DNA of 64,000 bases from Candidatus Poribacteria bacterium. Lineage in GTDB: Bacteria > Poribacteria > WGA-4E > WGA-3G. The notes beneath the pieces are model-generated. The model searched no databases. It saw only the letters and a list, made by a program, of their open reading frames with translations, and was not told where the DNA came from. The DNA lies in assembly GCA_022824835.1 (NCBI GenBank), contig JAJDZB010000073.1:23933-87932 (forward strand), written 5' to 3'. Both the position numbers and the translations under genes were made by a program. The stretch's first letter is position 1. Each line of letters opens with the position of its first letter. Positions 37,318 through 53,685 of the stretch are shown piece after piece.

Positions 37318-38076
37318 TCAATTCTCTGCGATCACTTGTTTAAAATCGAAATTAAATTTTAGTTTTTCATGTTTTTCTTCAGAATGAATTATACTGATTT
37401 CGGGTACGATAATTCTCATATCAACAGTGTCACGATCTAATCTATCAAAAACAATGAGGCCAGTTCGTTTCGCACCCTTAAACAGCTTACCACTCTCAAA
37501 TAGACTTTCAGCTGCGAATTCTTGTCCTGCTTCCAATGCCGCAATATCCAGGTATGAACGGTAATAAGGATAATATGGATGGTAATGTGGAATAGTTCGG
37601 GATTGTTGAATATTCTGATCTGTTTTCGTTACACTACCGTATAGGTCTTCAAAGTAATCGAAAGGTAGATTTGCGTATTGTGCACCGTTTCGATCTATGA
37701 GCTGCGCCGATTCTTCAACGACAACCCTCGGGGTAGTCAAATTGTGAACAGTCATAAGAAAGACAGTATAGATAGGTTCAACGTTCCCGTTATTCTCTAC
37801 GACGAGATAAGGATTGATATGCGGGTCTTCCGTCAGGGAATACATTTCTATTTCATCTAACGGTTCTAATGTTACTGCTACCCCGTTCTTTTGCATTGTA
37901 ACAGCACCCGTCTGTGGATCAATCTTTGTGTCAGTTTGTCCTTCAACCGGTTCAATAAAAACATCAATCTCAGGATTGGGTGCTATGGCACAACCTGTTA
38001 ACAGCGTTCCTATTAGGATATACATGACAAAGGATTGCTTAGAGGAAGTTATTTTGTGCAGTATTTGTCGTGTCAT
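37318..38076 (-). CDS. Hypothetical lipoprotein
   Basis: Lipobox LLTGCAI. No recognisable family. Confidence 0.45.
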   Translation of the reverse strand: MTRQILHKITSSKQSFVMYILIGTLLTGCAIAPNPEIDVFIEPVEGQTDTKIDPQTGAVTMQKNGVAVTLEPLDEIEMYSLTEDPHINPYLVVENNGNVEPIYTVFLMTVHNLTTPRVVVEESAQLIDRNGAQYANLPFDYFEDLYGSVTKTDQNIQQSRTIPHYHPYYPYYRSYLDIAALEAGQEFAAESLFESGKLFKGAKRTGLIVFDRLDRDTVDMRIIVPEISIIHSEEKHEKLKFNFDFKQVIAEN

Positions 38077-38183
38077 GACTTCTATTCTCCAATTGTCCCA
38101 ATTGTTATTCTATGACTTTTCTATCTATATTTTACACAAAGGTTTTTTTATTGTCAAGGATTTTATTACGAAAAACGGACTTA

Positions 38184-38212
38184 TTGACATTTTAACAGAG
38201 AGATTGTATAAT
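38184..38212 (+). promoter_or_regulatory. Consensus sigma-70 promoter upstream of the AAA/PD-(D/E)XK gene
   Basis: TTGACA-17 nt-TATAAT, perfect hexamers, 39 nt before the ATG at 38251. Confidence 0.6.
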
Positions 38213-38250
38213 ATTACTATCCATGTCCTGCCAATTACTGGAGTTGATTT

Positions 38251-39849
38251 ATGAAATCTTTTGGAACATTTGGACCTGTATTTCCGGATAAGAATTATGT
38301 TGTTTCTCGCCATGATGAACGCATAGATTTCATTCATCGGGTGAAGCAAGGCAGATATATTGTGCTGTTTGCACCTCGACAGACTGGTAAAACGACCTTC
38401 TTTAGAAATGCTATTGCTGCACTCCAAAAAGAGAATACGGATTATCTGCCTATACAACTTAATTTTGAAGGATATGCAGATATAGAAACAGACACATTTT
38501 ATCACTCACTCGGCAAAGAACTATGTAAACAAATTAAGCATATCATTCAGAAACGTATAGATATGCCGATTAATGAAATAACTGAATTGTTAAATAGTGT
38601 TAACATTACTAACCAAGTTTCTATGAGAGAGTTTCTTGAGGAACTTGGAGAAATAACAGAGAACTTTCATTTTGTTATAGTAATTGACGAATTTGATGGA
38701 ATTCCTCCTGATGCGCTTCGCGGGTTTCTACATTCATTACGTCATATTTACCTATCGCACTTAGAACATAGATGTCCGTATAGCGTAGGTATAGTTGGTG
38801 TCAAAAATATCACACAACTGAATTATGATCGTTCTATATCACCCTTCAATATCCAAGATGAGTTTAAACTATCAAACTTTACACTTGAACAGGTTCAAGA
38901 ACTTTTTGCCCAATATACTGATGAAGTTGGACAAGAAATTGACACGAGTGTCATTGAAGCAATACATAAACATACTGCTGGACAACCCTTTCTGGTCAAT
39001 AGATTTGGACAAATTCTTACTGAGGAGATTAACATACCGAATTCTGAGATCGTTCAGATGAATCATTTTAATGTAGCTTACAAGCAACTACTTAAGGAAA
39101 GCAATACAAACATATCACATCTTGCAGGAAATTTACGGAAAAATCCGCGTCTTGAAAGATTCTTGATGAGGATCGCATTAAATGGTGAAAACCGACGATT
39201 CAACCTTGACAATGAGATCATTAGTGAACTCGCAACTTATGGAATAATCACTGAAGATGGAAATGGATTGTGTGCAGTTCACAATTCTATCTATCTCCAA
39301 CGTGTGATACAATTGTTTCAACCCTTAATCAATGGACTTGAAGATCAATACTTCAGTAAAGATGGCCCCCAAGATTTTAGAGAATTTGTCACTGCTGGAG
39401 GACATCTGCAAATGGATACTTTAATTGATAACTTTAGTAACTTCATATCCCGAGCAGGCTATAGAATCCTCCAAGTACCAGAAACCCCTCAAGAATTCGT
39501 TGGTCAATATCTCTTATTTGGATATCTTGATGAATATGTTAACCTTATGGGGGCAACTATGTTTCTTGAGGTGCCAACAGGTAGAGGTAGAGCAGATCTC
39601 ATTATTGTACACAAACGTAGGAAGTATATCATTGAAACCAAAATATGGAGAAGTGAAAAATCGTATCAATCAGGAAAGAAACAACTTGCAGCTTATATGA
39701 AGAATGAGAATGCAAAAGAAGGCTATTACATAGTGTTTGATTATACAGAAAAGCCAAGCTCTAAAGTAGAGACAGATACTGTTGATGGTGTAGTGATTCA
39801 CTGCTATGTCATACCTGTGTTACAAGAAAGACCATCTCAAAGGTTATAA
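38251..39849 (+). CDS. AAA-ATPase-like protein fused to a C-terminal PD-(D/E)XK nuclease-like domain
   Basis: Walker A APRQTGKTT, Walker B FVIVIDEFD, C-terminal GRGRADLII..KYIIETKIW (D..E-x-K). This architecture matches the AAA-ATPase_like plus PDDEXK_9 proteins I recall. Confidence 0.65.
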   Translation: MKSFGTFGPVFPDKNYVVSRHDERIDFIHRVKQGRYIVLFAPRQTGKTTFFRNAIAALQKENTDYLPIQLNFEGYADIETDTFYHSLGKELCKQIKHIIQKRIDMPINEITELLNSVNITNQVSMREFLEELGEITENFHFVIVIDEFDGIPPDALRGFLHSLRHIYLSHLEHRCPYSVGIVGVKNITQLNYDRSISPFNIQDEFKLSNFTLEQVQELFAQYTDEVGQEIDTSVIEAIHKHTAGQPFLVNRFGQILTEEINIPNSEIVQMNHFNVAYKQLLKESNTNISHLAGNLRKNPRLERFLMRIALNGENRRFNLDNEIISELATYGIITEDGNGLCAVHNSIYLQRVIQLFQPLINGLEDQYFSKDGPQDFREFVTAGGHLQMDTLIDNFSNFISRAGYRILQVPETPQEFVGQYLLFGYLDEYVNLMGATMFLEVPTGRGRADLIIVHKRRKYIIETKIWRSEKSYQSGKKQLAAYMKNENAKEGYYIVFDYTEKPSSKVETDTVDGVVIHCYVIPVLQERPSQRL

Positions 39850-39985
39850 CGTCTACCGGCCTGGGAACATCCTCAAAATTCGCACATAAGTAACCAAAAA
39901 CCTTACACACCTCACCAACAAAACACTTTACTTTGTTAACACTTTAATATACAATTGATTCAAAAACTTGGAGAAACGTAAATAT

Positions 39986-41401
39986 ATGCAACTTTATGAA
40001 GCTGTCAGTCCTTTAGATTTTAGATACTATGGCGGCGATGAAACTTTTATGAAACGTCTGCTACCCTACGTCTCTGAAGCAGGATATGTAACCTGTCAAG
40101 CGAAGGTAGAGGCAGCATTAGTTCGGACGCTTGCGAAATATGGTGTCTGTACAACCGAAATCGCAGATGAAGTCGAACAAGCAGTGGAACACGTAACAGC
40201 AGAAGAGGTCTACGAAGAACAGAGACGTATCAGACACAACATCCGTTCACTCGTAAATGTAATTCGTAACAAGATTAGTCCTGAAGCACGTCCCTACGTC
40301 CACCTGTTCGCCACGTCAGCAGACATTTTGGATACGGCTACAGCAATAAGATTCAAAACACTGATTGCGGATGTAATTGTTCCGGATATGATTGCATTAG
40401 AAAAGCAATTGATCGTATTAGCACGAGAACATGCGGATACACCCCAAATAGGAAGAACACACGGACAACATGCAGAACCGATTACATTCGGTTACGCGTT
40501 GTCACTCTATGTCAGTAGACTTGGGACCCGGATTGAAAAAGTACACGAAGCAGGACAAAACTTACGCGGACAATTTTCGGGTGCGGTTGGCGCATTCAAC
40601 GGATTGGCATTGATACATGACAATCCTGAAAAAATGGAGGCTGATTTTCTTGAATTGCTCAACCTGAAACCGTCAGATACGCATACGTCAACACAGTGTG
40701 TAGAACCAGAGTTCATTTCAGATTTAGCATATCAAATCACAGCTGCCTATACAATACTTGCAAACTTCGCAGATGATATGCGACATCTCTATCGCACTGA
40801 AATTGCAGAGGTCGGAAGGAAATATAACCCACAACTTGTTGGCTCGTCCACGATGCCGCACAAGGTTAATCCAGAAGCTTATGAGAACATAAAGAGTCTA
40901 TGGAAAGCTTTTGTGCCACGCATGCAGACGGTATTCCTGGATAGCATTTTAGAACATCAACGCGACTTAACGAATTCGGCATCCAGTCGCTTTCTCACGG
41001 AGTTGGTTACGGCATTCGACTATGCTATCTACAGACTTCGCAAGGCATTAGATGAGATGGATGTTAAGTCGAAAAATATGATGCATAACCTCGAAATGAG
41101 TGCAGAGGATACAATCGCTGAACCTATCTATCTCTTGATGGCGTATTACGGATTTCCAGATGCTTACGATCATACACGTAAACTGATTGCACAAGTTCAT
41201 CAAACAGGCAAGAGCCTGTCAACACTACTCTGGGAGGATGAGACATTTCAACCGTTCCTTGATAAGTTAACGGAACCGCAACGCGAAGCATTACGTTCAC
41301 CAACGAACTATATCGGTGCTTCGGTGAAGAGAACGCATGCAACATGTGATGAATGGGAAAAACGGATAGACAATTTGATGGATGGTCTTAAGCCTACATA
41401 G
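39986..41401 (+). CDS. purB: Adenylosuccinate lyase
   Basis: SPLDFRY, fumarate-lyase signature GSSTMPHKVNP, TSADILDTA. ATG at 39986 preferred; the track TTG start is at 39968. Confidence 0.85.
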   Translation: MQLYEAVSPLDFRYYGGDETFMKRLLPYVSEAGYVTCQAKVEAALVRTLAKYGVCTTEIADEVEQAVEHVTAEEVYEEQRRIRHNIRSLVNVIRNKISPEARPYVHLFATSADILDTATAIRFKTLIADVIVPDMIALEKQLIVLAREHADTPQIGRTHGQHAEPITFGYALSLYVSRLGTRIEKVHEAGQNLRGQFSGAVGAFNGLALIHDNPEKMEADFLELLNLKPSDTHTSTQCVEPEFISDLAYQITAAYTILANFADDMRHLYRTEIAEVGRKYNPQLVGSSTMPHKVNPEAYENIKSLWKAFVPRMQTVFLDSILEHQRDLTNSASSRFLTELVTAFDYAIYRLRKALDEMDVKSKNMMHNLEMSAEDTIAEPIYLLMAYYGFPDAYDHTRKLIAQVHQTGKSLSTLLWEDETFQPFLDKLTEPQREALRSPTNYIGASVKRTHATCDEWEKRIDNLMDGLKPT

Positions 41402-41527: not shown

Positions 41528-43096
41528 ATGTTTGATATTGTTTACTTAGGACGAAGATGTGTCGGTTTTATCAGAAGATATCCCCGTACCTGGACTGTCA
41601 TCGGGTTATTGATCACGTTTGGTATCGGTATCTGGGTTGGTCGTGTTGTCAAATTTGAGAGAGTACCTGAATATGTGCAATCTTACACAGATCCGGTGAA
41701 AACGGATGAAACTAAACAGGTTTTTCCGGGTGTCGTCCATCGACAGATATTAGATGATGGTGTTTTGACGAACATCCTATCTGTTTCACCAGATGCAGTT
41801 GACATCCGTCCCTATAGCGCGATGGGTGCTGCAATTGGTACAGAAGATCTGCTATCAATTGCACGTCGAAACAGAGCACCTATTGCAATCAATGGCGGTT
41901 TCTATGAGATGTCCGGTACGTTTAGGGGAGAATCGGTTGGAGCACTTAAGATTAACGGTGAATGGATTAGTGAACCAGAGCAGGGACGCGGTGTTGTCGC
42001 TTTCAAAACCGTTGATGGAAAAATAGAAACTTCTATAGATAGAATCGCACTTCAGCACAGGATCTTGTTACCCAACGACACGCCAATAGAAATTGATGGG
42101 ATTAATCGTGGTAGGCAGCGAAACGAATTGCTGTTATACCGTCCAAACTTCCATTTTGTGACCCTAACAATGCCTGAAGGGGTTGAAGTTATCGTCCGAG
42201 ATAACATCGTTACTGACATTCGTGATGGACAAGGAAGTACCCCTATTCCGAAGGATGGATATATCCTATCAGCAACTGGACGAAAGCGAGGGGTACTATT
42301 AGAACACATACACATCGGTGATGCAGTTAGGATTCAAGAAAAGGTTATACCTGAAAAGGTTGGAGAGAGTAAGTTTTGGGAAGATTTTACGCATATTATC
42401 GGTGGAGGACCTTTACTGTTAAGAAATGGTGTTGTGTCAACGAGAGATGCTTATGAACGTGAAGGATTTGATAGTGCATTTCACAGTTTTTGGCATCCGA
42501 GAACCGCTATCGGTAAAAAAGCGGATGGAACACTCTTTTTTGTAACAATTTCTGCTGCTAAACCCGGTGTCCGACGCGGTGTTATGCTTCACAAACTTGC
42601 AAGGCTTTTTGTTGAATGGGGTGCAACAGACGCTGTCAACTTGGATGGCGGATTATCCACGATGATGGTTATTCGGAATGAGGTTGTCAGTTACAAGCTA
42701 ACACGACCTGACAAATCAGAGGTTGAGGAAAAGCAGAAAATGTCTGCAAAAGAGAAACAGACAGCGGAAAACAGGAAAGCGGATGAACAGCGTAAACAAA
42801 CAGACAAGATTGGGGAAGATGCTACACCTGACGACAAGACAGTGAAAGATGCTACATCTGACGACAAGACAGCAGAAAAGAAAACACCTGAGCTAGTTAA
42901 CATAATAAAGAAAACTAAAGTTGATGCTGCTGACGAAAAACCCGCAGAAAAAGCATCTACTCAGAGAAGTGCAAGAACAGGTCGTGGAAACCGACGTGTC
43001 AGACCTATGCCAAGGTTCCAAGGTCGCGCAATTTCAGATGCTATTCTAATTTTCCCAAAAAGTTCTGCTAAAAAACGTACTGGAAACGCAAAATAA
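41528..43096 (+). CDS. Phosphodiester glycosidase (NAGPA/DUF2233-like) family protein with a Lys/Asp/Glu-rich tail
   Basis: N-terminal TM helix, INGGFY, IIGGGPLLLRNG, AIGKKADGTLFFVTI, NLDGGLSTMMV. Low-complexity tail from about residue 395. Confidence 0.6.
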   Translation: MFDIVYLGRRCVGFIRRYPRTWTVIGLLITFGIGIWVGRVVKFERVPEYVQSYTDPVKTDETKQVFPGVVHRQILDDGVLTNILSVSPDAVDIRPYSAMGAAIGTEDLLSIARRNRAPIAINGGFYEMSGTFRGESVGALKINGEWISEPEQGRGVVAFKTVDGKIETSIDRIALQHRILLPNDTPIEIDGINRGRQRNELLLYRPNFHFVTLTMPEGVEVIVRDNIVTDIRDGQGSTPIPKDGYILSATGRKRGVLLEHIHIGDAVRIQEKVIPEKVGESKFWEDFTHIIGGGPLLLRNGVVSTRDAYEREGFDSAFHSFWHPRTAIGKKADGTLFFVTISAAKPGVRRGVMLHKLARLFVEWGATDAVNLDGGLSTMMVIRNEVVSYKLTRPDKSEVEEKQKMSAKEKQTAENRKADEQRKQTDKIGEDATPDDKTVKDATSDDKTAEKKTPELVNIIKKTKVDAADEKPAEKASTQRSARTGRGNRRVRPMPRFQGRAISDAILIFPKSSAKKRTGNAK

Positions 43097-43165: not shown

Positions 43166-43174
43166 TGGTAAAAT
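43166..43174 (+). promoter_or_regulatory. Candidate extended -10 element (TGGTAAAAT) ahead of the SBP-OmpA/VWA/DUF4159 operon
   Basis: TGnTAAAAT with a weak -35 (TGGAAT) 17 nt upstream. Confidence 0.35.
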
Positions 43175-43225
43175 GCACATAAGACGATAAAAATAATGCA
43201 GAGAATCTCAAAAAAGGATAATCAC

Positions 43226-45151
43226 ATGAAAAGAAATATAGGTTTACTTTCTACCTGGACATCTGCTATCCCATTTAATTGGACAATGCATAAGAAACTG
43301 CCACTTATGTTTACAATAAGCGTATCTTGCTTCGTGCTTCTGTGTCTTGTGTTTTCTGTAGATGCACAACAACGTTTTGCAGATGAAGTTGGGCAAGTTA
43401 CGATTCGTGATGTTACCTCTACATCTCCCTTTGTCATTCCATATATTACGTGGGGCGGCGAATCGGCTCTATTCCACGCGAATGGTGGATTGACAACGCA
43501 GACAGGTACAATCATGGCAAAACAGGGATTGAACCTAAAATTAGTTCCGGGAGATAACTTCCAGCAACAAGTTCGGGACTATCTTGGCGGCAAAACACCG
43601 ATTTTACGGGGAACGTTTAGAATGATCGCACAAGCAAGTGAAGTGATAGGACGCGATCCACGCACAAAACCCGTTATATTTGGACAACTTACATGGTCTG
43701 CTGGGGACCATTTCGTGGGAAGAGCGAATATACGAAAAATTTCTGACCTCAGCGGTAAAAAGATCGCTATTCAGAAAGGTGGACCTCATGTCGGTATGCT
43801 TTACGATATGTTAAAAACCGCACGGCTTTCCAAAACAAATGTGCAAATAGTTTGGGTTGACGAATTGACAGGCGCAAAAGGTCCAGCAGAAAAGTTCAGA
43901 AGTGACAGCTCTATTGCAGGATGTTTCGTCATTACACCTGATATGATCGGATTGACAGGAGGACCAGAAAATACCGGAACGGGGGCGGAAGGAACAGTCA
44001 AAGGGGCACACGTTGTCGTTAGTACTGCAACACTCTCACGTTCTATTGCTGATGTGTACGCATGCCGTAAGGATTTCTATGACCTCTATAAACCGTTGAT
44101 TGAGAAATTCTTTGCGGGTTATCTGAAAGGTGCTGAGGAGGTTGTCGCACTTAAAAAGACATATCAGAGAAGTGGCTCAACGGAATATACAAGACTGCTC
44201 TCCATGATGCAGAATATCTACGGCAAAGATGTGCTGCCAACGCTTGAGGAGGATGCACACGGTCTAATAGCGGATTGCACTTTCGTGGGACAACCCGGTA
44301 ATGTTGCGTTCTTCAACGATCCCAAGAATACCATCACAGGTTTTGAAGGGTTCAATAAGGCGGGTTTGGATATGGCGGTTAATTGGGGATTTGCAAGTCA
44401 ACGTCACGCACTTCTGCCATCTGATTTAAACTTCAACTCCGCTGCGTTTAAGAGTATCCTTGCTACAACTGTTGCTGCACCGACACAGTTAAAACAGACC
44501 CGTTTTAAGAAGGAGGCTGTCCGTGCAGAGATTGAATCATTTAATGAGGACGCTGCCCTTGACGAAAAAACGCTCATCTCCTTTACTATTCAATTTGATG
44601 CGAATGTAGAAACATTTAGTGGGACGCAATACCGCGAAGAATTTGATAGAGTGCTTGAACTCGCTGCGAAGTATGGAAACGCGGCAATTGCGATAAAAGG
44701 ACACAGCGATCCTACGAGAACGCTGCGTGTGTTAGTTAATGTCGGCATTAACAAAGGTGTGTTGAAACGTACAGGTACAACGGGCAACTATAAATACTTT
44801 ATGCAAGGTAAACCGCTTAGTCTTGAAAACACTGCGGAATTAATTCGCCTTATAGAACAAAAAACGTTTGACGATGGAACCGATGTTGACAGTCCTTATC
44901 AAGTGATGCGTGCAGCACTCAAACTTTCTGAACAGCGCGGTGAAGCGGTGAAACAGGCAATCATTGATTATGCGCGTAGTAAGAATGCACGAATTGATAC
45001 GGACCAGATTGTTCCTGTAGGTTTAGGCATTAAAGAACCTATTATCCCTAAACCTTCAAGTCTTGAAGAAGCATCGGTAAACCGGCGTGTAGAATTTGCG
45101 CTGATTAAAGTCTCTGCTGAAGCAGTTGCTGCATCCGACTTTGACTTTTGA
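43226..45151 (+). CDS. Secreted fusion protein: periplasmic substrate-binding-like (NMT1/SsuA-like) N-terminal region plus an OmpA-like peptidoglycan-binding C-terminal domain
   Basis: Signal-like LMFTISVSCFVLLCLVFSVDA. C-terminus IAIKGHSDPT...SEQRGEAVKQAI...NRRVEFALIKV is OmpA_C-like. Start uncertain (43196, 43226 with AAGGA upstream, or 43286). Confidence 0.55.
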   Translation: MKRNIGLLSTWTSAIPFNWTMHKKLPLMFTISVSCFVLLCLVFSVDAQQRFADEVGQVTIRDVTSTSPFVIPYITWGGESALFHANGGLTTQTGTIMAKQGLNLKLVPGDNFQQQVRDYLGGKTPILRGTFRMIAQASEVIGRDPRTKPVIFGQLTWSAGDHFVGRANIRKISDLSGKKIAIQKGGPHVGMLYDMLKTARLSKTNVQIVWVDELTGAKGPAEKFRSDSSIAGCFVITPDMIGLTGGPENTGTGAEGTVKGAHVVVSTATLSRSIADVYACRKDFYDLYKPLIEKFFAGYLKGAEEVVALKKTYQRSGSTEYTRLLSMMQNIYGKDVLPTLEEDAHGLIADCTFVGQPGNVAFFNDPKNTITGFEGFNKAGLDMAVNWGFASQRHALLPSDLNFNSAAFKSILATTVAAPTQLKQTRFKKEAVRAEIESFNEDAALDEKTLISFTIQFDANVETFSGTQYREEFDRVLELAAKYGNAAIAIKGHSDPTRTLRVLVNVGINKGVLKRTGTTGNYKYFMQGKPLSLENTAELIRLIEQKTFDDGTDVDSPYQVMRAALKLSEQRGEAVKQAIIDYARSKNARIDTDQIVPVGLGIKEPIIPKPSSLEEASVNRRVEFALIKVSAEAVAASDFDF

Positions 45152-45173
45152 GTCCTTAAGATAGGAGGGGCTT

Positions 45174-46100
45174 GTGAAACTTTCAATCGTGTCTTATGTT
45201 TTATTCCTAATTACGCTACTCATCATAAACATGTGTATAGCAGACGGGGGTGTTCATACGGATAATATTGTCGTAATCCTTGATGCGTCCGGTTCTATGA
45301 AGAACAAATTCCGAGGGGACGAGACTAAGTCTAAGATGGACGCTGCAAAGGAGGCACTCCAAGAGGTGTTGGCAAAAATTCCTGATGGAACCAATATAGG
45401 TGTGCTCGTATTTAGTGGACGTAATGTGCCAAATGAATGGGTGTATCCACTGGGACCAAAAGACACGAATAGGTTGATCGAAGCTATCAATCGTCCCGAA
45501 CCAGAAGGAGGTACACCGCTTGGGAGATATATCCGTATCGGTGCAAACCGCCTACTTGAACAACGTGAGAAACAGTATAACTACGGGAACTATCGCTTGT
45601 TGATTGTAACGGATGGGGAAGCACAAGATGCTGAAAAAGTCGCACAATACACACCCGAGGTTTTGAATAGGCAGCTTCGGGTTGACGTCATCGGGGTTGA
45701 TATGAAAACGGATCACCAGTTAGCACAGGAGGCGGATAGTTATCGGAGAGCGGATAATCCAGGAGAACTCGTTGCTGCTGTCACACAGATACTCGCTGAA
45801 ACCGGTGGAACTGCTACTGATATCGGTGGTGAAGAAGCATTTGACGATATTGCACCCCTCACACCTGAAATCGCGTTAGACCTTATTCAACGGATTACAA
45901 CACCTGCAAGTAATGCAGCGATAGCGGTTGAAACAACTTCTACAGTACCGAAACAAACGAATACACCGACACAACCGCAGCAACCAACGCAACAACCTTT
46001 ACAAGGGAGTGACAGAGGCGGAAACACACCGTGGATACTTATCGGACTTGTTGTCTTAGTTGCAGGTTATATTATTTTTAGACGCATGGGAAGACATTAG
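45174..46100 (+). CDS. VWA-domain protein with a Pro/Gln/Thr-rich linker and C-terminal TM anchor
   Basis: GTG start 5 nt after AGGAGGGG. MIDAS LDASGSM, GGTPLG, LIVTDGEAQD. C-terminal WILIGLVVLVAGYIIF. Confidence 0.7.
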   Translation: MKLSIVSYVLFLITLLIINMCIADGGVHTDNIVVILDASGSMKNKFRGDETKSKMDAAKEALQEVLAKIPDGTNIGVLVFSGRNVPNEWVYPLGPKDTNRLIEAINRPEPEGGTPLGRYIRIGANRLLEQREKQYNYGNYRLLIVTDGEAQDAEKVAQYTPEVLNRQLRVDVIGVDMKTDHQLAQEADSYRRADNPGELVAAVTQILAETGGTATDIGGEEAFDDIAPLTPEIALDLIQRITTPASNAAIAVETTSTVPKQTNTPTQPQQPTQQPLQGSDRGGNTPWILIGLVVLVAGYIIFRRMGRH

Positions 46101-46101
46101 C

Positions 46102-47709
46102 ATGGAAGCAAAAACAAAAAGTAGAGTCATTATGGTAGCGAGTTGGCTGATTATTATCGGGGTGATCGGTCTTGCCTATAAGTTTCTCGTTGAACCACGG
46201 CTTAGTGGTAGACGTGATAAACTCGTTCAAGATACGAGCACGCGTAATTATGACCACGAAATAAAAATCGCCCACGACTCTTTTCCAGGATATGCTATTT
46301 TACGTTCTGACGCTGTCAAGAACCTACTTGATCGTCAAGCCATTAAACTTACGTTTATTGATGACAAAGCGGACTATGTCAAGAGAGTACGTGATCTCAA
46401 AAGTGGTAAAGTGCAGATGGCGGTTTTTACAATAGATGCATATCTTAAAGCGGGTAATGTTGTTGGTGATTATCCCGGTTCAATTGTTCTGGTCATAGAC
46501 GAATCTAAAGGTGCTGATGCCATGGTAGCACATAAACGTGGTGTTGCGGCTATACCAAATTTGAGCAATCCGGCGGCTAAGATAATACTCACACCGGACT
46601 CACCGAGTGAAACACTTGCACGTATTATGATTAACACGATGAGTCTGCCGAGTCTACCAGCAAATTGGAAATCGGATGCCAATGGGGCAGAAGATGTATA
46701 CAATAAACTAAAATCTGCCGATCCAGACGACCCGTACGCCTATGTTCTTTGGGAACCTTATGTAACAAAAGCACTTGCAATTGATGGCGTCCAATTGCTG
46801 TTGGATAGTTCAAAAATAAAAGGATATATCGTTGATGTCTTAGTGGTTCAACGGGAATTTCTAAACTCTCAACGCGAACTTGTTACCCCTGTTGTGCAAG
46901 CCTATCTCCGGGCAAACTACGATTACACAAACCAACCGGATGGATTGCTGTCATTAATTCAGGAAGATGCAAAGCAGTATGGTGACACATTAAATCAGAA
47001 TGAAGCGAGTAAACTTGTAAAAGGTATTGAATGGCGTAACACCGTTGAGAATTATGCTCATTTCGGTATTATCACGGGTTCAGCGGCGAAAGAAGCGGAG
47101 AAACTTGACACGATGATACAGAAAATAATGCAAGTTCTTGTCAAAACCAAATCCCTGCCATCCGATCCGTTAGCTGGGAATTATGGACAGTTATACTATG
47201 AAGGAATTTTACGTGCATTAAATACAGACGAGTTCCATCCCGGTGTGCTCAGTAGTAGCGCCACTGAGGGTTTAGAAGGTATCCTTGTAGATACTTCAAG
47301 TGTGATAGAGGAGAAAGTGCGTGAAGATAAAGCACTCAATCCACTCTCGGATACGAACTGGAATAATCTTGCGCCTGTTGCAGCGATGAAGATTGAGCCG
47401 ATTCAATTCGGCAGGGGGAATGCTCGTATTCTTCCCGGTAGTAAACGTGCTCTCACCGACATTGCATCCAAGCTCAAGTCGTTCCCTCAATACTATCTTC
47501 GAGTCGTTGGACACACACGTGCGGAAGGGGACGCTACAGCGAATAAGGTTCTGGCAACACAACGCGCAGAAGCCGCAGCGAAGGCACTCAGGGAACTGGG
47601 TATTGCAAATCATAGAATACGCGCTATTGCTGGCACTCGGAATGCATTTAAGAAGCATGGCGGCGAAGCGCAAAGCGTGACTTTTGAATTGTTAGGTCAG
47701 GCGTATTAG
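46102..47709 (+). CDS. Membrane-anchored SBP-like (SsuA/TauA-like) plus OmpA-like fusion protein
   Basis: ATG at 46102, one nt after the upstream stop. N-terminal TM helix. WEPYVTKAL..DVLVVQREFL resembles NMT1/TauA-type binding proteins. C-terminal LRVVGHTRAEGD..NKVLATQRAEAAAKAL is OmpA/MotB-like. Confidence 0.55.
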   Translation: MEAKTKSRVIMVASWLIIIGVIGLAYKFLVEPRLSGRRDKLVQDTSTRNYDHEIKIAHDSFPGYAILRSDAVKNLLDRQAIKLTFIDDKADYVKRVRDLKSGKVQMAVFTIDAYLKAGNVVGDYPGSIVLVIDESKGADAMVAHKRGVAAIPNLSNPAAKIILTPDSPSETLARIMINTMSLPSLPANWKSDANGAEDVYNKLKSADPDDPYAYVLWEPYVTKALAIDGVQLLLDSSKIKGYIVDVLVVQREFLNSQRELVTPVVQAYLRANYDYTNQPDGLLSLIQEDAKQYGDTLNQNEASKLVKGIEWRNTVENYAHFGIITGSAAKEAEKLDTMIQKIMQVLVKTKSLPSDPLAGNYGQLYYEGILRALNTDEFHPGVLSSSATEGLEGILVDTSSVIEEKVREDKALNPLSDTNWNNLAPVAAMKIEPIQFGRGNARILPGSKRALTDIASKLKSFPQYYLRVVGHTRAEGDATANKVLATQRAEAAAKALRELGIANHRIRAIAGTRNAFKKHGGEAQSVTFELLGQAY

Positions 47710-47760
47710 ACTCAGGTAAATGTTTGTGCAGACTATACCATTATATAGGAGGACAGAAGC

Positions 47761-48657
47761 ATGTCAATTAATAGAAACAGAAAACAGAGAAAAATATCCA
47801 ATCGTCCTTTATCACGTCGTGCATTTATAAAAGGTTCTGTAGGACTTGCCACAGCTGCTACGGCTGGCGGTGGTTTAATTCGGTCAGCGAGCGCACAACG
47901 ATCCAGTTTTGGTGAGCATATACCGTATGATTCAACAAAAGATTATCATTGGGACTATAATCCACGCAACGGCAGACGTGAAATAATTGAACACCACCAT
48001 CCTGGCATGGAACCAACAGGTGAAAAATTTACTTTCGTCCGACTCAAATATCCCGGCGGAGATTGGTATACCAATCTTGTCAGAACCTACTTCTGGCAGT
48101 CAGACTTAAAGTTTACGCAACTGCTTGATGCCAATACCGCAATAAATGTTGATCTGCGACAACATCCACAATATGTTGAAATTGACGATCCTTGGTTGTT
48201 TTCTTATCCATTCCTCTTCATGACTGGACACGGTAAGGTTAGGGGTGGTATGCGAATTACGGATCAACAGATCAGAAAGTTAAGAGAGTACTTTGATCGC
48301 GGTGGATTCATGCACGTTGAAGATTGCGATATCCGTGAATATGACTTCCGTCCGCAGATTGTGCAATTGATGAAACGGATCTTCCCAGATAAGAAATTCG
48401 AACGTCTGGATTTGACGCACCCAATTTACCACACACTTTACCCACATAATGAATATATGGGTGGGGACAAACTGTGGCCAACTTATGCTTATGACGAAGT
48501 TATCTTGGATAAGGATGACAAAGTCATGGTCTACTTCTGTCCAAACGATCTCAACTGTGCATGGGAAGGAAGAATATGTGAGCCCGGTGGTGAAGAGCAA
48601 CGTATTTGGGCATTTGAACAAGGGATGAATGTTGTCGCTTATGCCTTAACGAGATGA
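47761..48657 (+). CDS. Tat-signal protein with a DUF4159-like domain
   Basis: Twin-arginine motif SRRAFIKGS followed by a hydrophobic stretch. FVRLKYPGGDWYTN..YPFLFMTGHG..LREYFDRGGFMHVEDC matches my memory of DUF4159. Confidence 0.5.
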   Translation: MSINRNRKQRKISNRPLSRRAFIKGSVGLATAATAGGGLIRSASAQRSSFGEHIPYDSTKDYHWDYNPRNGRREIIEHHHPGMEPTGEKFTFVRLKYPGGDWYTNLVRTYFWQSDLKFTQLLDANTAINVDLRQHPQYVEIDDPWLFSYPFLFMTGHGKVRGGMRITDQQIRKLREYFDRGGFMHVEDCDIREYDFRPQIVQLMKRIFPDKKFERLDLTHPIYHTLYPHNEYMGGDKLWPTYAYDEVILDKDDKVMVYFCPNDLNCAWEGRICEPGGEEQRIWAFEQGMNVVAYALTR

Positions 48658-51066: not shown

Positions 51067-53685
51067 TCATTTTACAATAGAGAATTTACCTGCGCTTCGG
51101 TATCCGTTTCCATCGCTTGCCATGTAGAAGTATAGTCCGGTACAGACCTTTTCACCATTTTGATTGGTACAATCCCAATTCGACGCATTCTCTATTACCT
51201 TAATTAAGTTACCCGTTACATCATAGATTTCAACTTTTAGACCTTTTGGGTAAAATGAAAGGTGTTGGTTCCCAAGAGTTGGACGAATTGGATTTGGTGC
51301 AACTACTACTTTGCGGTTCGTACTGTTCTGTAGATAACTGAAAGATTGTCCTTGCCAGATTCTGTTACCGGTTTTACCTGATAGGTTCTTTCCAGAAATC
51401 TTATATAAGTAAATCCCGGTAGCAGGGAATCCGTTTGTCTGTAGAGTCCCACGCCATTTTGTAGGAGACACCTGGAATAAGGTGATGTTATAGGTATCCC
51501 TATTTGGTGCTTCTACTGATAACATCGGCGCACTTTGAAGTGCATGCGTGCTTGTCACCTCAACATGCCACTCGCCTGTGCCGTGTTGTTGTGTATTGAT
51601 GAAAAACGATGGTGCTTGGTTTGCTGATTCTATGGCCGGTGAAAAGCTATCTGGAGCGATACTCGGTGTTCCCATAATTCCTATAGCGTCCGCCGGCACA
51701 ACTGCATAGTAATAGTGTACCATGTCTTCAGGGTCAACGTCCTGGAAAACTGTTCTATCTTCAAACTGCCCCTGTTGTGGGATTTGCGTCAATGAGACGC
51801 GTCCGACAACAGTGATGTCGTCTTCAGCAATGCCATCTCCGTTGCGATCAACGGCTGCGAGCACTTCAGCATCGGATTGGAAGGTTTGCGGTTCATCTGT
51901 TTCACTATTTAAGACGTATCGTTTTCTGACGATAGCGACTTCCTGAATACCCGTTGGGTCATCAACAGTCCAATTGAGCAAAGCACCAGAAGTGCCTTGT
52001 GATACTTGGACGTTTGCGAGTTGTCCTTTCGGTGGTGCGCCAGCAACAAAACTGATAGAACCACCAGTAGTACCACCCGGAACTACCACCTGTTCAACAT
52101 CAGCGTGCATATTGATAAGAATAAGTGTAATTTCTTTAATCACGCCACCGAAATCATTGAATGTGATTTGTGCTTCCTGAGACTTATGATATGTGAAGGC
52201 TTCTCTGATTTCAATTTTATTGTTCTGTTTCTTTACAATGAATTTTGCAGCCCACCCACGTAATCCTGTGCCATTGAGTCTGTTAAGTTCGCTCTGGATA
52301 TTGTTTCTGTCTTCAATTGTCAGAGCACTCATATCATAAGGCGCAAGGTCAGCACCATCAATTTTGATTGCGAATTCTGGCATGACGCCTTGTGGTCGGA
52401 ATACGATATAACGACACGAAAAGTGTTCTGGCATCGCCTCAGAATCGAAGTGCGTACCAATCGGATATTGACTGTGAACATCGTTTGGGTGGATTGCGAC
52501 AGTAGGGAACCTTTCAGCGTTTCTATACCCTTGTATATCAACAGTCGTATTCGCGCGTGTATACGTAAAATAATTCCATACAGTAAAAGTCTTGAAAGCT
52601 TCTGCGAGGGTTGTACCGTTGTCTATAAAGACATCATAAAAGTTACCGAATTCGCGATAACTGCCATCTGTCGTATTGGTATAAAACTGGCGTATGATGT
52701 CATAGCCGAATCGTTCTGCCATATAGAGCGACCAGATGACTGACCCGTATTCATGGTCACCGATTCTACTCTCAAGGGAAATATCGGGTATATTAAACCA
52801 TCGGCGTAGTTGATGGATGTAATAGTTATAAGCGTTAGTCTCGGTCGGTTCATCGGGATCAGGGAGTGTGTCTCCATCGTCAACGACACCGCCATCATAA
52901 GTCATCACCTCAATCCACGTAGCAGATGATTCCATGAACCAGGTTGGCATATAGGCGTTATATGCAAACTGTATCCCGTGCAGGAATTCATGTGCGCATG
53001 TGGTTTCAAGATATCGTATCCCCTCTGCTTTTCCGACATAATCGTAGATACGTGAGTTGATCATGAAATAGGGAGCGATTGTCAACGCAGTGGATAGTAC
53101 CCGTCCTTCAAACCAGTCTGCTGTTGTGATACCGAGTGCTGGGAAGGTAAACAGGTATACATCCATTTTATGGTCGCCGCCGTTCTGTGCTGCCCAAAAA
53201 TCCATGTAAGGTTTCTTGAACCCCATGAGATCAATTTGAACGTGATAGGCGCGTTCCATCGCATCAGCACAGAGATCGATATAATCAGGGACTCCGTTAC
53301 GGGGATGAAAGTCTTCAAGCGGCGGTGCGTGGGGTCCTCTGCGTGTATAGTGGAGTTTGAAATGCGGTGTGTTAAAGTGTTCTGTAAGGACAATATCACC
53401 GAAGAAACTTCCCGGAAGTCCTGGACGGAGGAAAACCGGTTTTAATTCTTGCCGTAGTGTTGATGGGATGTTTTGCCAGTTTTTCGCGACCGTTACAAAA
53501 CTATCCGTAGCACATTCCATGACGTCGCCAGGTGAATATCTCGGTTTGAGATTAGTGAACTTTCGTACATTTTGAATGGCACTTTGAAGGTCTGCATCTG
53601 GAGGGAGTGCATAACTGATACACGAAATAGTTACTGTAAATAGGAGGACAGCAGTAAAATATGTATTTTTGGCGATTTTTTTCAT
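51067..53685 (-). CDS. Secreted HEXXH metalloprotease-like protein with a T9SS/FlgD-Ig-like C-terminal domain
   Basis: Signal peptide. TCAHEFLHGIQFAY..WFMESSATWIE (HEXXH plus a downstream Glu). C-terminal LKVEIYDVTGNLIKVI...GLYFYMA..GKFSIVK beta-sandwich sorting-domain pattern. Confidence 0.65.
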   Translation of the reverse strand: MKKIAKNTYFTAVLLFTVTISCISYALPPDADLQSAIQNVRKFTNLKPRYSPGDVMECATDSFVTVAKNWQNIPSTLRQELKPVFLRPGLPGSFFGDIVLTEHFNTPHFKLHYTRRGPHAPPLEDFHPRNGVPDYIDLCADAMERAYHVQIDLMGFKKPYMDFWAAQNGGDHKMDVYLFTFPALGITTADWFEGRVLSTALTIAPYFMINSRIYDYVGKAEGIRYLETTCAHEFLHGIQFAYNAYMPTWFMESSATWIEVMTYDGGVVDDGDTLPDPDEPTETNAYNYYIHQLRRWFNIPDISLESRIGDHEYGSVIWSLYMAERFGYDIIRQFYTNTTDGSYREFGNFYDVFIDNGTTLAEAFKTFTVWNYFTYTRANTTVDIQGYRNAERFPTVAIHPNDVHSQYPIGTHFDSEAMPEHFSCRYIVFRPQGVMPEFAIKIDGADLAPYDMSALTIEDRNNIQSELNRLNGTGLRGWAAKFIVKKQNNKIEIREAFTYHKSQEAQITFNDFGGVIKEITLILINMHADVEQVVVPGGTTGGSISFVAGAPPKGQLANVQVSQGTSGALLNWTVDDPTGIQEVAIVRKRYVLNSETDEPQTFQSDAEVLAAVDRNGDGIAEDDITVVGRVSLTQIPQQGQFEDRTVFQDVDPEDMVHYYYAVVPADAIGIMGTPSIAPDSFSPAIESANQAPSFFINTQQHGTGEWHVEVTSTHALQSAPMLSVEAPNRDTYNITLFQVSPTKWRGTLQTNGFPATGIYLYKISGKNLSGKTGNRIWQGQSFSYLQNSTNRKVVVAPNPIRPTLGNQHLSFYPKGLKVEIYDVTGNLIKVIENASNWDCTNQNGEKVCTGLYFYMASDGNGYRSAGKFSIVK

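Follow-up and report, generated by a model that had tools for sequence, protein, structure and literature searches.

Three adjacent plus-strand genes of a Candidatus Poribacteria genome, designated A, B and C, form a conserved unit, and on balance we favour the view that, in a larger system for envelope maintenance, they encode the half that lies outside the cytoplasm, and that in this lineage the system is split over two chromosomal loci. The genes lie within a 64 kb stretch of DNA, the whole of which is referred to as the window, and they are followed there by a fourth gene, D. Among 86 related loci from two phyla, including Verrucomicrobia, the order A-B-C was found in all of those in which the contig was long enough, with B between A and C in every such case. 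Because this order recurs in every long-enough locus and in two phyla, the arrangement represents more than chance. The Verrucomicrobia proteins are 47-57% identical to those of the window overall (A, 55-57%; B, 47-49%; C, 47-50%).

The four ORFs of the locus (43196-48657) span positions 43196-45151, 45174-46100, 46102-47709 and 47761-48657, and their coordinates bear out the tight packing that had been described, with gaps of 22, 1 and 51 nt between A and B, B and C, and C and D, respectively. No intrinsic terminators were found between the four genes, and the few terminator-like matches fall within coding sequence; this absence is consistent with co-transcription of A-D but is not proof of it. 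The original prediction also placed a candidate extended -10 element ahead of A. A candidate string of this type, TGgTAAAAT, can be read directly from the plus strand upstream of A (43166..43174), but a consensus promoter scan found nothing promoter-like at 43166-43174 and no matching -35. On the minus strand, a perfect 12/12 match to the sigma-70 consensus (47767-47740) lies over the start codon of D. We treat this apparent antisense promoter as a chance match, because its -35 coincides with the conserved ATGTCAA at the start of D, and because its exact -10 hexamer, TATAAT, was found in none of the 20 related loci examined (a looser TAnnnT was present in four).

Gene A (43226..45151, plus strand) encodes a secreted protein of 641 aa with a binding-protein-like domain and an OmpA-like domain. 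The longest ORF opens at 43196; however, the ATG at 43226 is more likely to be the start, because AAGGA lies upstream of it, the orthologues begin with MKRN, and the gene caller picked it at locus L001. The signal peptide, as read from the sequence, ends in VDA and is followed by QQRF. In Pfam, NMT1 reached 22.9 bits (cut-off 20.5) and OmpA was weak at 15.3 bits, and further matches were obtained to SsuA_fam (6.5e-7) and to the NCBIfam model YiaD-OmpA (E 1.5e-5). Moreover, the motifs GH[ST]DP, LSxxR and N[RM]RVEF are kept throughout the aligned A proteins, in which a C-terminal DFDF is invariant. A PDB sequence search with A returned one marginal OmpA match. The profile matches and conserved motifs uphold the proposal that A is a secreted NMT1/SsuA/TauA-like module fused to an OmpA-type domain.

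The product of gene B (45174..46100, plus strand) is a VWA protein, predicted to be periplasmic, that has a Pro/Gln/Thr linker and is anchored by a TM segment at its C-terminus. Its residues 31-185 match the Pfam families VWA_2 (55.3 bits) and VWA (49.6 bits). A signal-like hydrophobic segment at the N-terminus, the MIDAS residues DASGS..T..D and a C-terminal TM segment, ILIGLVVLVAGYIIF, followed by RRMGRH, are all readable in the sequence, in agreement with the earlier description of B as a MIDAS-complete, membrane-anchored VWA protein.

Gene C (46102..47709, plus strand) starts at an in-frame ATG within the ORF 46060-47709 and encodes an N-terminal TM anchor, a TauA/SsuA-like domain, a short low-confidence segment and an OmpA-like domain. 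The last of these scored 47.4 bits in Pfam, and the family profile of C matched YiaD at 1.2e-12. The match of the binding domain to Pfam NMT1 alone was weak (E 0.048), and TIGR03427 matched at 2.3e-8. The AlphaFold model of C (pLDDT 88) has a long N-terminal helix (residues 2-45), and a Foldseek search with this model gave TauA (6ssy) as the best match (E 2.5e-14, TM 0.79), followed by SsuA, ThiY and NrtA/CmpA, with sequence identity to the solved binding proteins of just 9-16%. These results support the claim that C is a TM-anchored fusion of a solute-binding-like module and an OmpA domain, and the fold proposed for that module was obtained by structure prediction.

The type II periplasmic binding-protein fold of the NMT1/SsuA/TauA class is thus found in both proteins, in C by Foldseek and in A by the NMT1 cut-off; the HMMs agree for A and C. 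This is the fold of the TauA, SsuA and NrtA binding proteins of NitT/TauT importers. In contrast to these binding proteins, A and C each carry an OmpA-like domain in addition, C is anchored by a TM segment, and a permease or ATPase adjoins the genes at a minority of loci; in the window, no cognate pair was found. The OmpA-like domains of A (weakly in Pfam) and C have profile matches to the C-terminal domains of YiaD, Pal and OmpA. In overall topology, C also resembles MotB, with a TM helix at the N-terminus and an OmpA-like domain at the C-terminus; however, MotB has a conserved Asp in its TM segment, whereas the TM segment read from the sequence of C has no acidic residue. In OmpA-like domains, a conserved Asp (GxTD) and a conserved Arg (LSxxRA) contact diaminopimelate, as seen in the structures of Pal and AbOmpA. 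Protein A keeps this pair (GH[ST]DP and LSxxR), with an insertion of ~60 residues between the two, whereas in C the Asp of the canonical GHTD/GYTD is replaced by an invariant Arg473 (GHTR) and the QRA arginine is retained. Peptidoglycan binding by the OmpA-like domain of C, which lacks the canonical Asp, is uncertain.

Gene D (47761..48657, plus strand) encodes a twin-arginine signal (SRRAFIKGS) and a DUF4159 domain (126 bits in Pfam). The region of the signal reads SRRAFIKGSVGLATAATAGG and fits the pattern S/T-R-R-x-F-L-K followed by a hydrophobic stretch; the Tat HMM scores are below their cut-offs (16.3 vs. 22.7 bits and 15.4 vs. 16.7 bits). The RR is kept in nearly all aligned orthologues, a set of Cys/His-rich motifs is conserved in the orthologues too, and the identification of D as a twin-arginine DUF4159 protein stands. 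An AGGAGG ribosome-binding site ahead of D is also conserved in related loci. The AlphaFold model of D (pLDDT 84) has only one real match in the PDB, 4i66 (Hoch_4089), which is another DUF4159 protein of unknown function. Because the next matches reach TM values of 0.38 at most, no enzymatic analogy is justified for D.

The four genes had been regarded as one unit, and the gene neighbourhoods overturn this part of the original prediction: A-B-C co-occurs across the 86 loci, but D stands beside it solely in sponge-type Poribacteria, downstream in 35 loci and upstream in 32, and is missing from all A-B-C loci outside two sponge-type clades. In a further poribacterial genome (OZ244587.1), ~0.8 Mb separates A-B-C from the D orthologue, which adjoins a 2-hydroxyacid dehydrogenase gene, as does the D orthologue in one other genome. 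The conserved unit is A-B-C, and, judged from the sequences compared, D is a later, sponge-clade-specific addition outside the conserved core. If D is functional at this locus, the VWA protein B is its most likely partner, since a distant DUF4159 homologue is located in a DUF58/BatA/VWA cluster.

In loci without D, A-B-C is followed by a helical protein with two TM segments (E), a PspA/IM30 protein (F) and a two-lobed classical AAA+ ATPase, and either a NitT/TauT-type ABC importer or a protein of 590-615 aa of unknown fold (p587) is usually inserted before the ATPase. Contiguous arrangements of the type A-B-C-E-F-(binding protein-permease-ATPase)-AAA were found at L002, L003, L006 and L070-L073, and those of the type A-B-C-E-F-(p587)-AAA at L076, L077 and L079-L081; together, 12 of the 86 loci have E, F and the AAA+ ATPase in one stretch with A-B-C. 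A PspA/IM30 gene is present at the orthologous loci L002-L004, L006, L070-L073, L076, L077, L079-L081 and L085, and E follows A-B-C in every long-enough locus outside the clade of the window. This PspA/AAA+ connection, the strongest of those seen next to A-B-C in relatives, was missing from the original prediction.

Protein F belongs to PspA_IM30 (PF04012; 36.7 and 38.5 bits, cut-off 33.9). Protein E has no detectable similarity to PspA (hhalign probability 0.7%), no Pfam match and no PDB match better than E 0.07. An hhalign probability of 98.9% between E and F, which would have made E PspA- or Snf7-like, came from short PspA paralogues of L087 and L088, and we rejected this assignment in favour of the clean alignment. 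A PDB sequence search with p587 gave no match. In the AAA+ ATPase of the relatives, PF00004 and a Cdc48/VAT-like domain cover residues 360-555 only and one Walker A motif is present; the N-terminal half weakly resembles the C-terminal half (hhalign probability 51%, E 1.5e-4).

None of the cytoplasmic partners, such as the PspA/IM30 gene, E and the AAA+ ATPase, is present in the 64 kb window. In the clade of the window, the partner genes stand together at a second locus, and AAA+ orthologues with 63-67% identity to the query occur on chromosomes that carry a window-type A-B-C-D. In OY763324.1, where both positions were compared, E-PspA paralogues-F-p587-AAA lies at 4.04 Mb and A-B-C-D at 2.31-2.34 Mb, which places the two loci 1.7 Mb apart; A-B-C-D and the partner genes are split likewise in OZ242381.1. 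For the window, the split arrangement is read from these chromosomes of relatives, the C proteins of which are 81-83% identical to that of the window.

A similar class of operon has been described computationally, in which genes for PspA, TM-Snf7 and an inactive-AAA+AAA protein are accompanied by an ABC ATPase, a permease and a SIG+PBPB+OmpA protein, with OGG56892.1 of Candidatus Handelsmanbacteria as an example (Ravi et al., 2024, mSystems; PMC11237479). The extended loci of the relatives correspond to it in their set of domain families, with PspA, a TM-anchored helical protein (E) as the putative counterpart of TM-Snf7, a two-lobed classical AAA+ ATPase, and an ABC permease and ATPase, a likeness drawn from the published description rather than from the sequence of OGG56892.1. 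The signal-binding protein-OmpA architecture is that of A and C, the PspA gene occurs at the orthologous loci and at the second locus of the clade rather than in the window, and an adjacent ABC permease and ATPase occur in 7 of the 86 related loci and not in the window. However, the published class has one PBPB-OmpA protein and no VWA protein, whereas in the loci compared here a VWA protein always stands between two binding-OmpA paralogues; furthermore, in the lineage of the window, the periplasmic genes no longer adjoin the PspA/AAA+ genes and have gained a Tat-DUF4159 gene as a neighbour. The operon can therefore no longer be called uncharacterised without qualification, although the VWA protein and the paired binding-OmpA proteins appear to be new with respect to that description.

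Several other explanations of A-B-C deserve consideration. Because the periplasmic domain of C is closest in structure to TauA, SsuA, ThiY and NrtA/CmpA, and because the NMT1, SsuA and TIGR03427 matches belong to the same fold family, A and C could be tethered substrate-binding proteins that catch a solute near the wall for a NitT/TauT-type ABC importer encoded elsewhere in the genome, with B and D as accessories. The original prediction stated that no ABC permease or ATPase accompanies these genes. This holds for the window, in which tblastn found no homologue of BPD_transp_1 permeases, ABC ATPases or AAA proteins, but only partly for the orthologous loci of Verrucomicrobia and non-sponge-type Poribacteria, since at the seven loci mentioned above A-B-C is followed, after a few genes, by those for a BPD_transp_1 permease and an ABC ATPase. 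These importer-type loci, however, have a further gene immediately ahead of the one for the permease. Its product of 355-359 aa is separate from A and C, carries a signal peptide but no tether, has no Pfam match and shows only a faint similarity to the binding domain of C; the position of the gene suggests that it encodes the transporter's own binding protein. Moreover, loci of other architectures keep A-B-C without a permease or ATPase within 10 kb, and E, rather than a permease, is the constant downstream gene outside the clade of the window. We consider an importer function unlikely. The sole transporter genes of the window are Liv-type and belong to another family than NitT/TauT.

An explanation close to the original hypothesis, and one to which we assign a still lower probability, is that A-B-C-D is a self-contained periplasmic VWA system without any tie to PspA or AAA+ proteins, Bat-like but lacking MoxR and DUF58, in which DUF4159 and VWA proteins cooperate and the binding-OmpA proteins serve as wall anchors. 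The four genes are tightly packed with no terminator-like site between them, D adjoins A-B-C in 67 loci although the sides change, export is predicted for all four products, and a membrane-anchored VWA gene adjoining a DUF4159 gene is a feature shared with Bat/MoxR clusters (MoxR, DUF58, BatA/BatB VWA and DUF4159), as is also illustrated by the distant DUF4159 homologue. However, no MoxR, DUF58 or BatA N-terminal domain was found by a Pfam scan of 17 neighbouring proteins of the window (about 33.9-58.9 kb), as had been predicted for MoxR and DUF58, and the BatA/BatB matches of B are marginal (E 0.05). In addition, D is unlinked in OZ244587.1 and is not conserved with A-B-C outside the two poribacterial clades. 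Most D-containing loci are syntenic throughout the neighbourhood, with NAGPA upstream and an FAD oxidoreductase, p276 and p872 downstream, so the adjacency of D and A-B-C may reflect shared ancestry instead of selection. Finally, A-B-C might be a stand-alone cell-wall tether or adhesion module, co-regulated with envelope-stress genes and not physically coupled to their products. The two modules are separable in evolution, as the distance in OY763324.1 demonstrates, and at L004, where A-B-C is followed by E and F, no gene for an AAA+ ATPase lies within 10 kb. Co-regulation nevertheless does not usually keep genes contiguous in two phyla and across several gene orders, as is the case for A-B-C with E and F, and we regard this explanation as improbable. 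A role in anti-phage defence was also rejected: when proteins A to F, p587 and the AAA+ ATPase were compared with the PADLOC models, there were no meaningful matches, only marginal ones (TerY, IetA, ZorA and LmuB) in coiled-coil or P-loop regions.

According to the envelope-maintenance model that we favour, A, B and C would form a module in the periplasm that is tethered to peptidoglycan and anchored in the inner membrane, with C as a membrane-anchored paralogue of A in architecture. Export or anchor signals can be read from the sequences of all four products, which are predicted to face the periplasm as first proposed, and the sequences together with the model of C suggest the membrane topology. 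The earlier notion of a periplasmic complex tethered to peptidoglycan still describes A-B-C reasonably well. The cytoplasmic half would consist of E, at least one PspA/IM30 protein (F), p587 and the two-lobed AAA+ ATPase. A and C would link the inner membrane to the cell wall, and the clefts of their binding domains may report a small ligand or the state of the envelope. The MIDAS site of B may hold the complex together, possibly via an acidic ligand, for which the invariant DFDF at the C-terminus of A is a candidate. Together with E, the TM helices of B and C would then couple the envelope state to assembly of the PspA polymer on the cytoplasmic face, and the AAA+ ATPase would remodel or recycle the polymer. 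Gene linkage alone does not prove such physical or functional coupling.

A more specific proposal, which we offer tentatively and regard as possible rather than probable, is that A-B-C acts as the extracytoplasmic sensor or stator of a membrane-remodelling machine composed of PspA, a member of the ESCRT-III superfamily, and the AAA+ ATPase. The wall-tethered pair of binding domains and the MIDAS adaptor would sense a ligand in the periplasm or how far the membrane is from the wall, and the TM segments of B, C and E would set the sites of PspA polymer assembly and AAA+ disassembly. If this is true, bacteria would have a counterpart of ESCRT-III/Vps4 that is controlled from the outside in. PspA, Vipp1 and ESCRT-III are currently grouped in a single, ancient superfamily of membrane-remodelling proteins, and because a Vps4-like ATPase appears to be absent in bacteria according to a 2025 review (PMC7619361), how bacterial PspA polymers are positioned and recycled is an open question. 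In the system described here, PspA is accompanied by a dedicated AAA+ ATPase of the classical type and by an invariant, wall-anchored periplasmic module of three proteins, and this combination is a concrete candidate for outside-in control of PspA. Verrucomicrobia, in which all of the genes are contiguous, offer a defined gene set for testing it. The locus of the sponge symbiont, which seemed to be an orphan operon, would accordingly be half of a split system, with the DUF4159 gene as just a lineage-specific neighbour. The system occupies a niche rather than being widespread, with the A family comprising 270 clusters at E ≤1e-30 among 1.84 billion representatives.

Four plus-strand ORFs occupy positions 43196-48657 and are separated by gaps of 22, 1 and 51 nt, exactly the spacing given in the original prediction of a four-gene envelope operon. 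These ORFs are gene A (43196-45151, 651 aa, or 641 aa from ATG 43226), gene B (45174-46100, 308 aa, GTG start), gene C (46102-47709, 535 aa) and gene D (47761-48657, 298 aa). ATG 43226 is more likely to be the true start of A because an AAGGA lies upstream of it, the orthologues start with MKRN, and the gene caller selected this codon in the identical contig L001. The proposed extended -10 element exists as a string (TGgTAAAAT, 43166-43174), but a consensus scan shows no promoter-like site at this position; therefore, no matching -35 was found. The scan also revealed no terminator-like site between the four genes, and the AGGAGG ribosome-binding site of D is conserved. On the minus strand, positions 47740-47767 match the sigma-70 consensus at 12/12 positions (TTGACA, 16 nt spacer, TATAAT), reading antisense into C and overlapping the start codon of D, with the conserved ATGTCAA of the D start serving as the -35. 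We consider this match to be probably a chance occurrence and not a real promoter because the exact -10 hexamer was found in 0 of the 20 related loci examined.

Protein A combines a secreted TauA/SsuA-like binding domain with an OmpA-like domain. The former is supported by Pfam NMT1 (22.9 bits, above the cut-off of 20.5) and NCBIfam SsuA_fam (6.5e-7), and the latter by a weak Pfam OmpA match (15.3 bits) and by YiaD-OmpA of NCBIfam (1.5e-5). In an alignment of 13 proteins from Poribacteria and Verrucomicrobia, the cleavable signal peptide ends ..A↓Q(Q/E)RF in most Poribacteria, and the OmpA-like part conserves GH[ST]DP, LSxxR and N[RM]RVEF and holds an insertion of approximately 60 residues. 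The protein terminates in (A/S)DFDF (45140-45151), and DFDF is retained without change in Poribacteria and Verrucomicrobia alike; this acidic-aromatic C terminus might act as a docking peptide that is recognised, for instance, by the MIDAS site of the VWA protein B. With 270 clusters at E 1e-30 or better out of 1.84 billion representatives, the A family is small.

Protein B matches VWA_2 (55 bits) and VWA (49.6 bits). Its sequence shows a signal-like segment at the N terminus, the MIDAS residues DASGS..T..D, a Pro/Gln/Thr linker and, ahead of RRMGRH, a C-terminal TM helix. The signal-like segment and the C-terminal TM helix indicate that the VWA domain faces the periplasm. Protein C matches Pfam OmpA (47.4 bits) and NCBIfam TIGR03427 (2.3e-8), and its AlphaFold model (mean pLDDT 88, built from 42 homologues) consists of a helix at residues 2-45, an alpha/beta binding-protein body, a low-confidence stretch at approximately 380-400 and an OmpA-like domain. 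The best Foldseek match of this model in the PDB is TauA (6ssy, E 2.5e-14, target TM 0.79), followed by SsuA, ThiY and NrtA/CmpA, which confirms for C the binding-protein assignment made originally. An invariant Arg replaces the Asp of the canonical GxTD motif (GHTRAEGD), and the contact of C with peptidoglycan may therefore be atypical. In the binding domain, many residues are invariant down to 46% identity, such as DSFxGY, TxD, DExxGxD, SPSE and WEP. Many of these residues are acidic, and a cationic ligand might be guessed at, although this is only a guess.

A profile of C searched against the GTDB species representatives gave 235 matching stretches, from which 80 loci were recovered; exact-protein look-ups added six, and all 86 were mapped with the window proteins and the neighbors of distant loci. 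A, B and C occur in that order wherever the contig reaches. The C protein of locus L007, on a 5.9 Mb contig (CBDBFT010000001.1), is 99% identical to that of the window, and identities to the Verrucomicrobia orthologues are 55-57% for A, 47-49% for B and 47-50% for C. The arrangement A-B-C-D is found in 35 loci, which form the clade of the window, and D-A-B-C-E-p587 is found in 32, with the same downstream genes in four further truncated loci. Seven loci from Verrucomicrobia and some Poribacteria read A-B-C-E-F-(355-359 aa protein)-permease-ABC ATPase-AAA, and five read A-B-C-E-F-(p587)-AAA, in one of which (L077) p587 is not detectable. Two loci (L004 and L085) carry A-B-C-E-F, beyond which the locus diverges or ends, and in L005 the contig ends directly after C. 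The original expectation of a conserved four-gene arrangement thus holds for A-B-C and fails for D. Protein E has approximately 260 aa and two TM helices, and the rest of it is helical. F is PspA/IM30 (PF04012; 36.7 and 38.5 bits, above the cut-off of 33.9), and p587, a protein of 590-615 aa, has no match in Pfam or the PDB. A Cdc48/VAT-like domain of the classical AAA group occupies residues 360-555 of the AAA+ ATPase. The N-terminal half of this protein bears only a weak resemblance to the C-terminal half (hhalign probability 51%, E 1.5e-4), with IIIEAAD at the Walker B position of the active half and no Walker A. A 296 aa ORF (L071 15062-15952) is inserted between the 359 aa signal-peptide protein and the permease of the linked ABC transporter in two loci of Poribacteria, L071 and L072; we would guess from its sequence that it may be an outer-membrane beta-barrel.

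E, PspA/F, p587 and the AAA+ ATPase are all absent from the 64 kb window. However, AAA+ ATPase orthologues that are 63-67% identical to a non-sponge poribacterial query share chromosomes with A-B-C-D of the window type, the chromosomes having been paired on equal length (e.g., 4,780,840, 5,426,982, 5,444,765, 5,206,209 and 5,507,996 bp). OY763324.1 carries A-B-C-D at 2.31-2.34 Mb and, at 4.04-4.06 Mb, a second group made up of E, three PspA paralogues of short length, F, p587 and the AAA+ ATPase; OZ242381.1 shows the same split. In OY282374.1, which has D upstream, an F-AAA pair is apart from D-A-B-C-E-p587. Therefore, the window locus probably represents half of a split system. Between E and the p587-AAA genes, the second loci of two window-clade genomes (L087 5170-8057 and L088 4269-8057) carry two to three tandem, short paralogues resembling PspA (169-260 aa), followed by the full-length PspA/IM30 gene; no such expansion was observed in the Verrucomicrobia loci.

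Ravi et al. (2024; PMC11237479) described PspA with a membrane-anchored divergent Snf7 and an inactive/active classical AAA ATPase, which may occur in longer operons together with genes for an ABC ATPase, a permease and a SIG+PBPB+OmpA protein, as in OGG56892.1 of Candidatus Handelsmanbacteria. The authors suggested that membrane remodelling and solute transport are connected. According to a review from 2025 (PMC7619361), bacteria appear to lack a Vps4-like ATPase. The domain set of the published operons corresponds to that of our extended loci, whereas Ravi et al. make no mention of the VWA protein, the paired binding-OmpA paralogues, p587, the split arrangement or DUF4159. Accordingly, the system belongs to a computationally described kind, of which a variant is found here. 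No experimental work on the A-B-C/PspA/AAA+ system was found in the literature.

Beyond the observed domain identities, conserved linkage and topology suggested by sequence and model, we incline, with somewhat better than even confidence, to the view that A-B-C is the periplasmic module of the PspA/AAA+ system. How it would act is a more tentative matter, and the specific outside-in control outlined here is doubtful. A would be soluble in the periplasm and bind the wall, C would be anchored in the inner membrane with its atypical OmpA-like domain, and the two would bridge membrane and peptidoglycan. The TauA-like clefts of A and C are likely to accommodate a small ligand or a partner, and a probable role of the MIDAS site of B is to clamp an acidic residue in a partner. 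The assembly state would reach PspA polymers on the cytoplasmic face through E and the TM segments of B and C, and the AAA+ ATPase would remodel these polymers.

An unlikely alternative is that A and C are tethered binding proteins of a NitT/TauT importer. Their fold and the seven transporter-containing loci fit this reading, but in those same loci a separate untethered protein directly precedes the permease, and most loci contain no transporter at all. That A-B-C-D forms a self-contained VWA/DUF4159 system, which is close to the peptidoglycan-tethered ligand-sensing or adhesion complex originally envisaged, appears quite improbable because D is not conserved with A-B-C. The original interpretation is supported in part, and the four-gene locus on which it was built is real. 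We give very little credence to A-B-C being a wall tether that acts alone and shares only its regulation with stress genes.

D matches DUF4159 (126 bits) and retains its twin-arginine motif in nearly all aligned orthologues, together with a conserved Cys/His-rich motif set (MTGH, EDCD, SHP, NCAWE and RxCxPGGEEQR). The sole match of its AlphaFold model (pLDDT 84) is 4i66, a DUF4159 protein of unknown function, and the searched literature mentions DUF4159 only in a Pfam database paper. D adjoins A-B-C only in two sponge-type poribacterial clades, on opposite sides between them. In OZ244587.1, which has the transporter-containing A-B-C type, a D orthologue (56% identity) lies approximately 0.8 Mb from A-B-C, and there and in one other genome D is beside a 2-hydroxyacid dehydrogenase gene. 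Most D-containing loci are syntenic, with NAGPA upstream and an FAD oxidoreductase, p276 and p872 downstream; because this synteny is wide, the adjacency of D and A-B-C alone is weak evidence of function. A DUF4159 homologue of the Tat type, distant at 30% identity, is part of a DUF58/BatA/VWA cluster, and a DUF4159-VWA partnership of D and B would, by analogy, be reasonable but is unproven.

The plus-strand gene at 41528-43096 encodes a TM-anchored NAGPA (phosphodiester glycosidase) domain protein with a long Lys/Glu/Asp-rich C-terminal tail, which is found shortly upstream of A-B-C, or of an upstream D, in most sponge-type poribacterial loci and may be a further envelope-facing neighbor. On the minus strand, an 872 aa protein with a type IX secretion C-terminal sorting domain (CHU_C / Por_Secre_tail; 51067-53685), whose synteny with the locus extends to most of the sponge-type Poribacteria examined, adjoins an 842 aa WD40-repeat protein (54016-56544). 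The 2 kb bin with the highest AT content in the window (38000-40000; GC 0.353 vs. approximately 0.38-0.45 elsewhere) may be an inserted element, and it contains a plus-strand ORF (38251-39849) with AAA_35 and PD-(D/E)XK (PDDEXK_9/NERD) domains.
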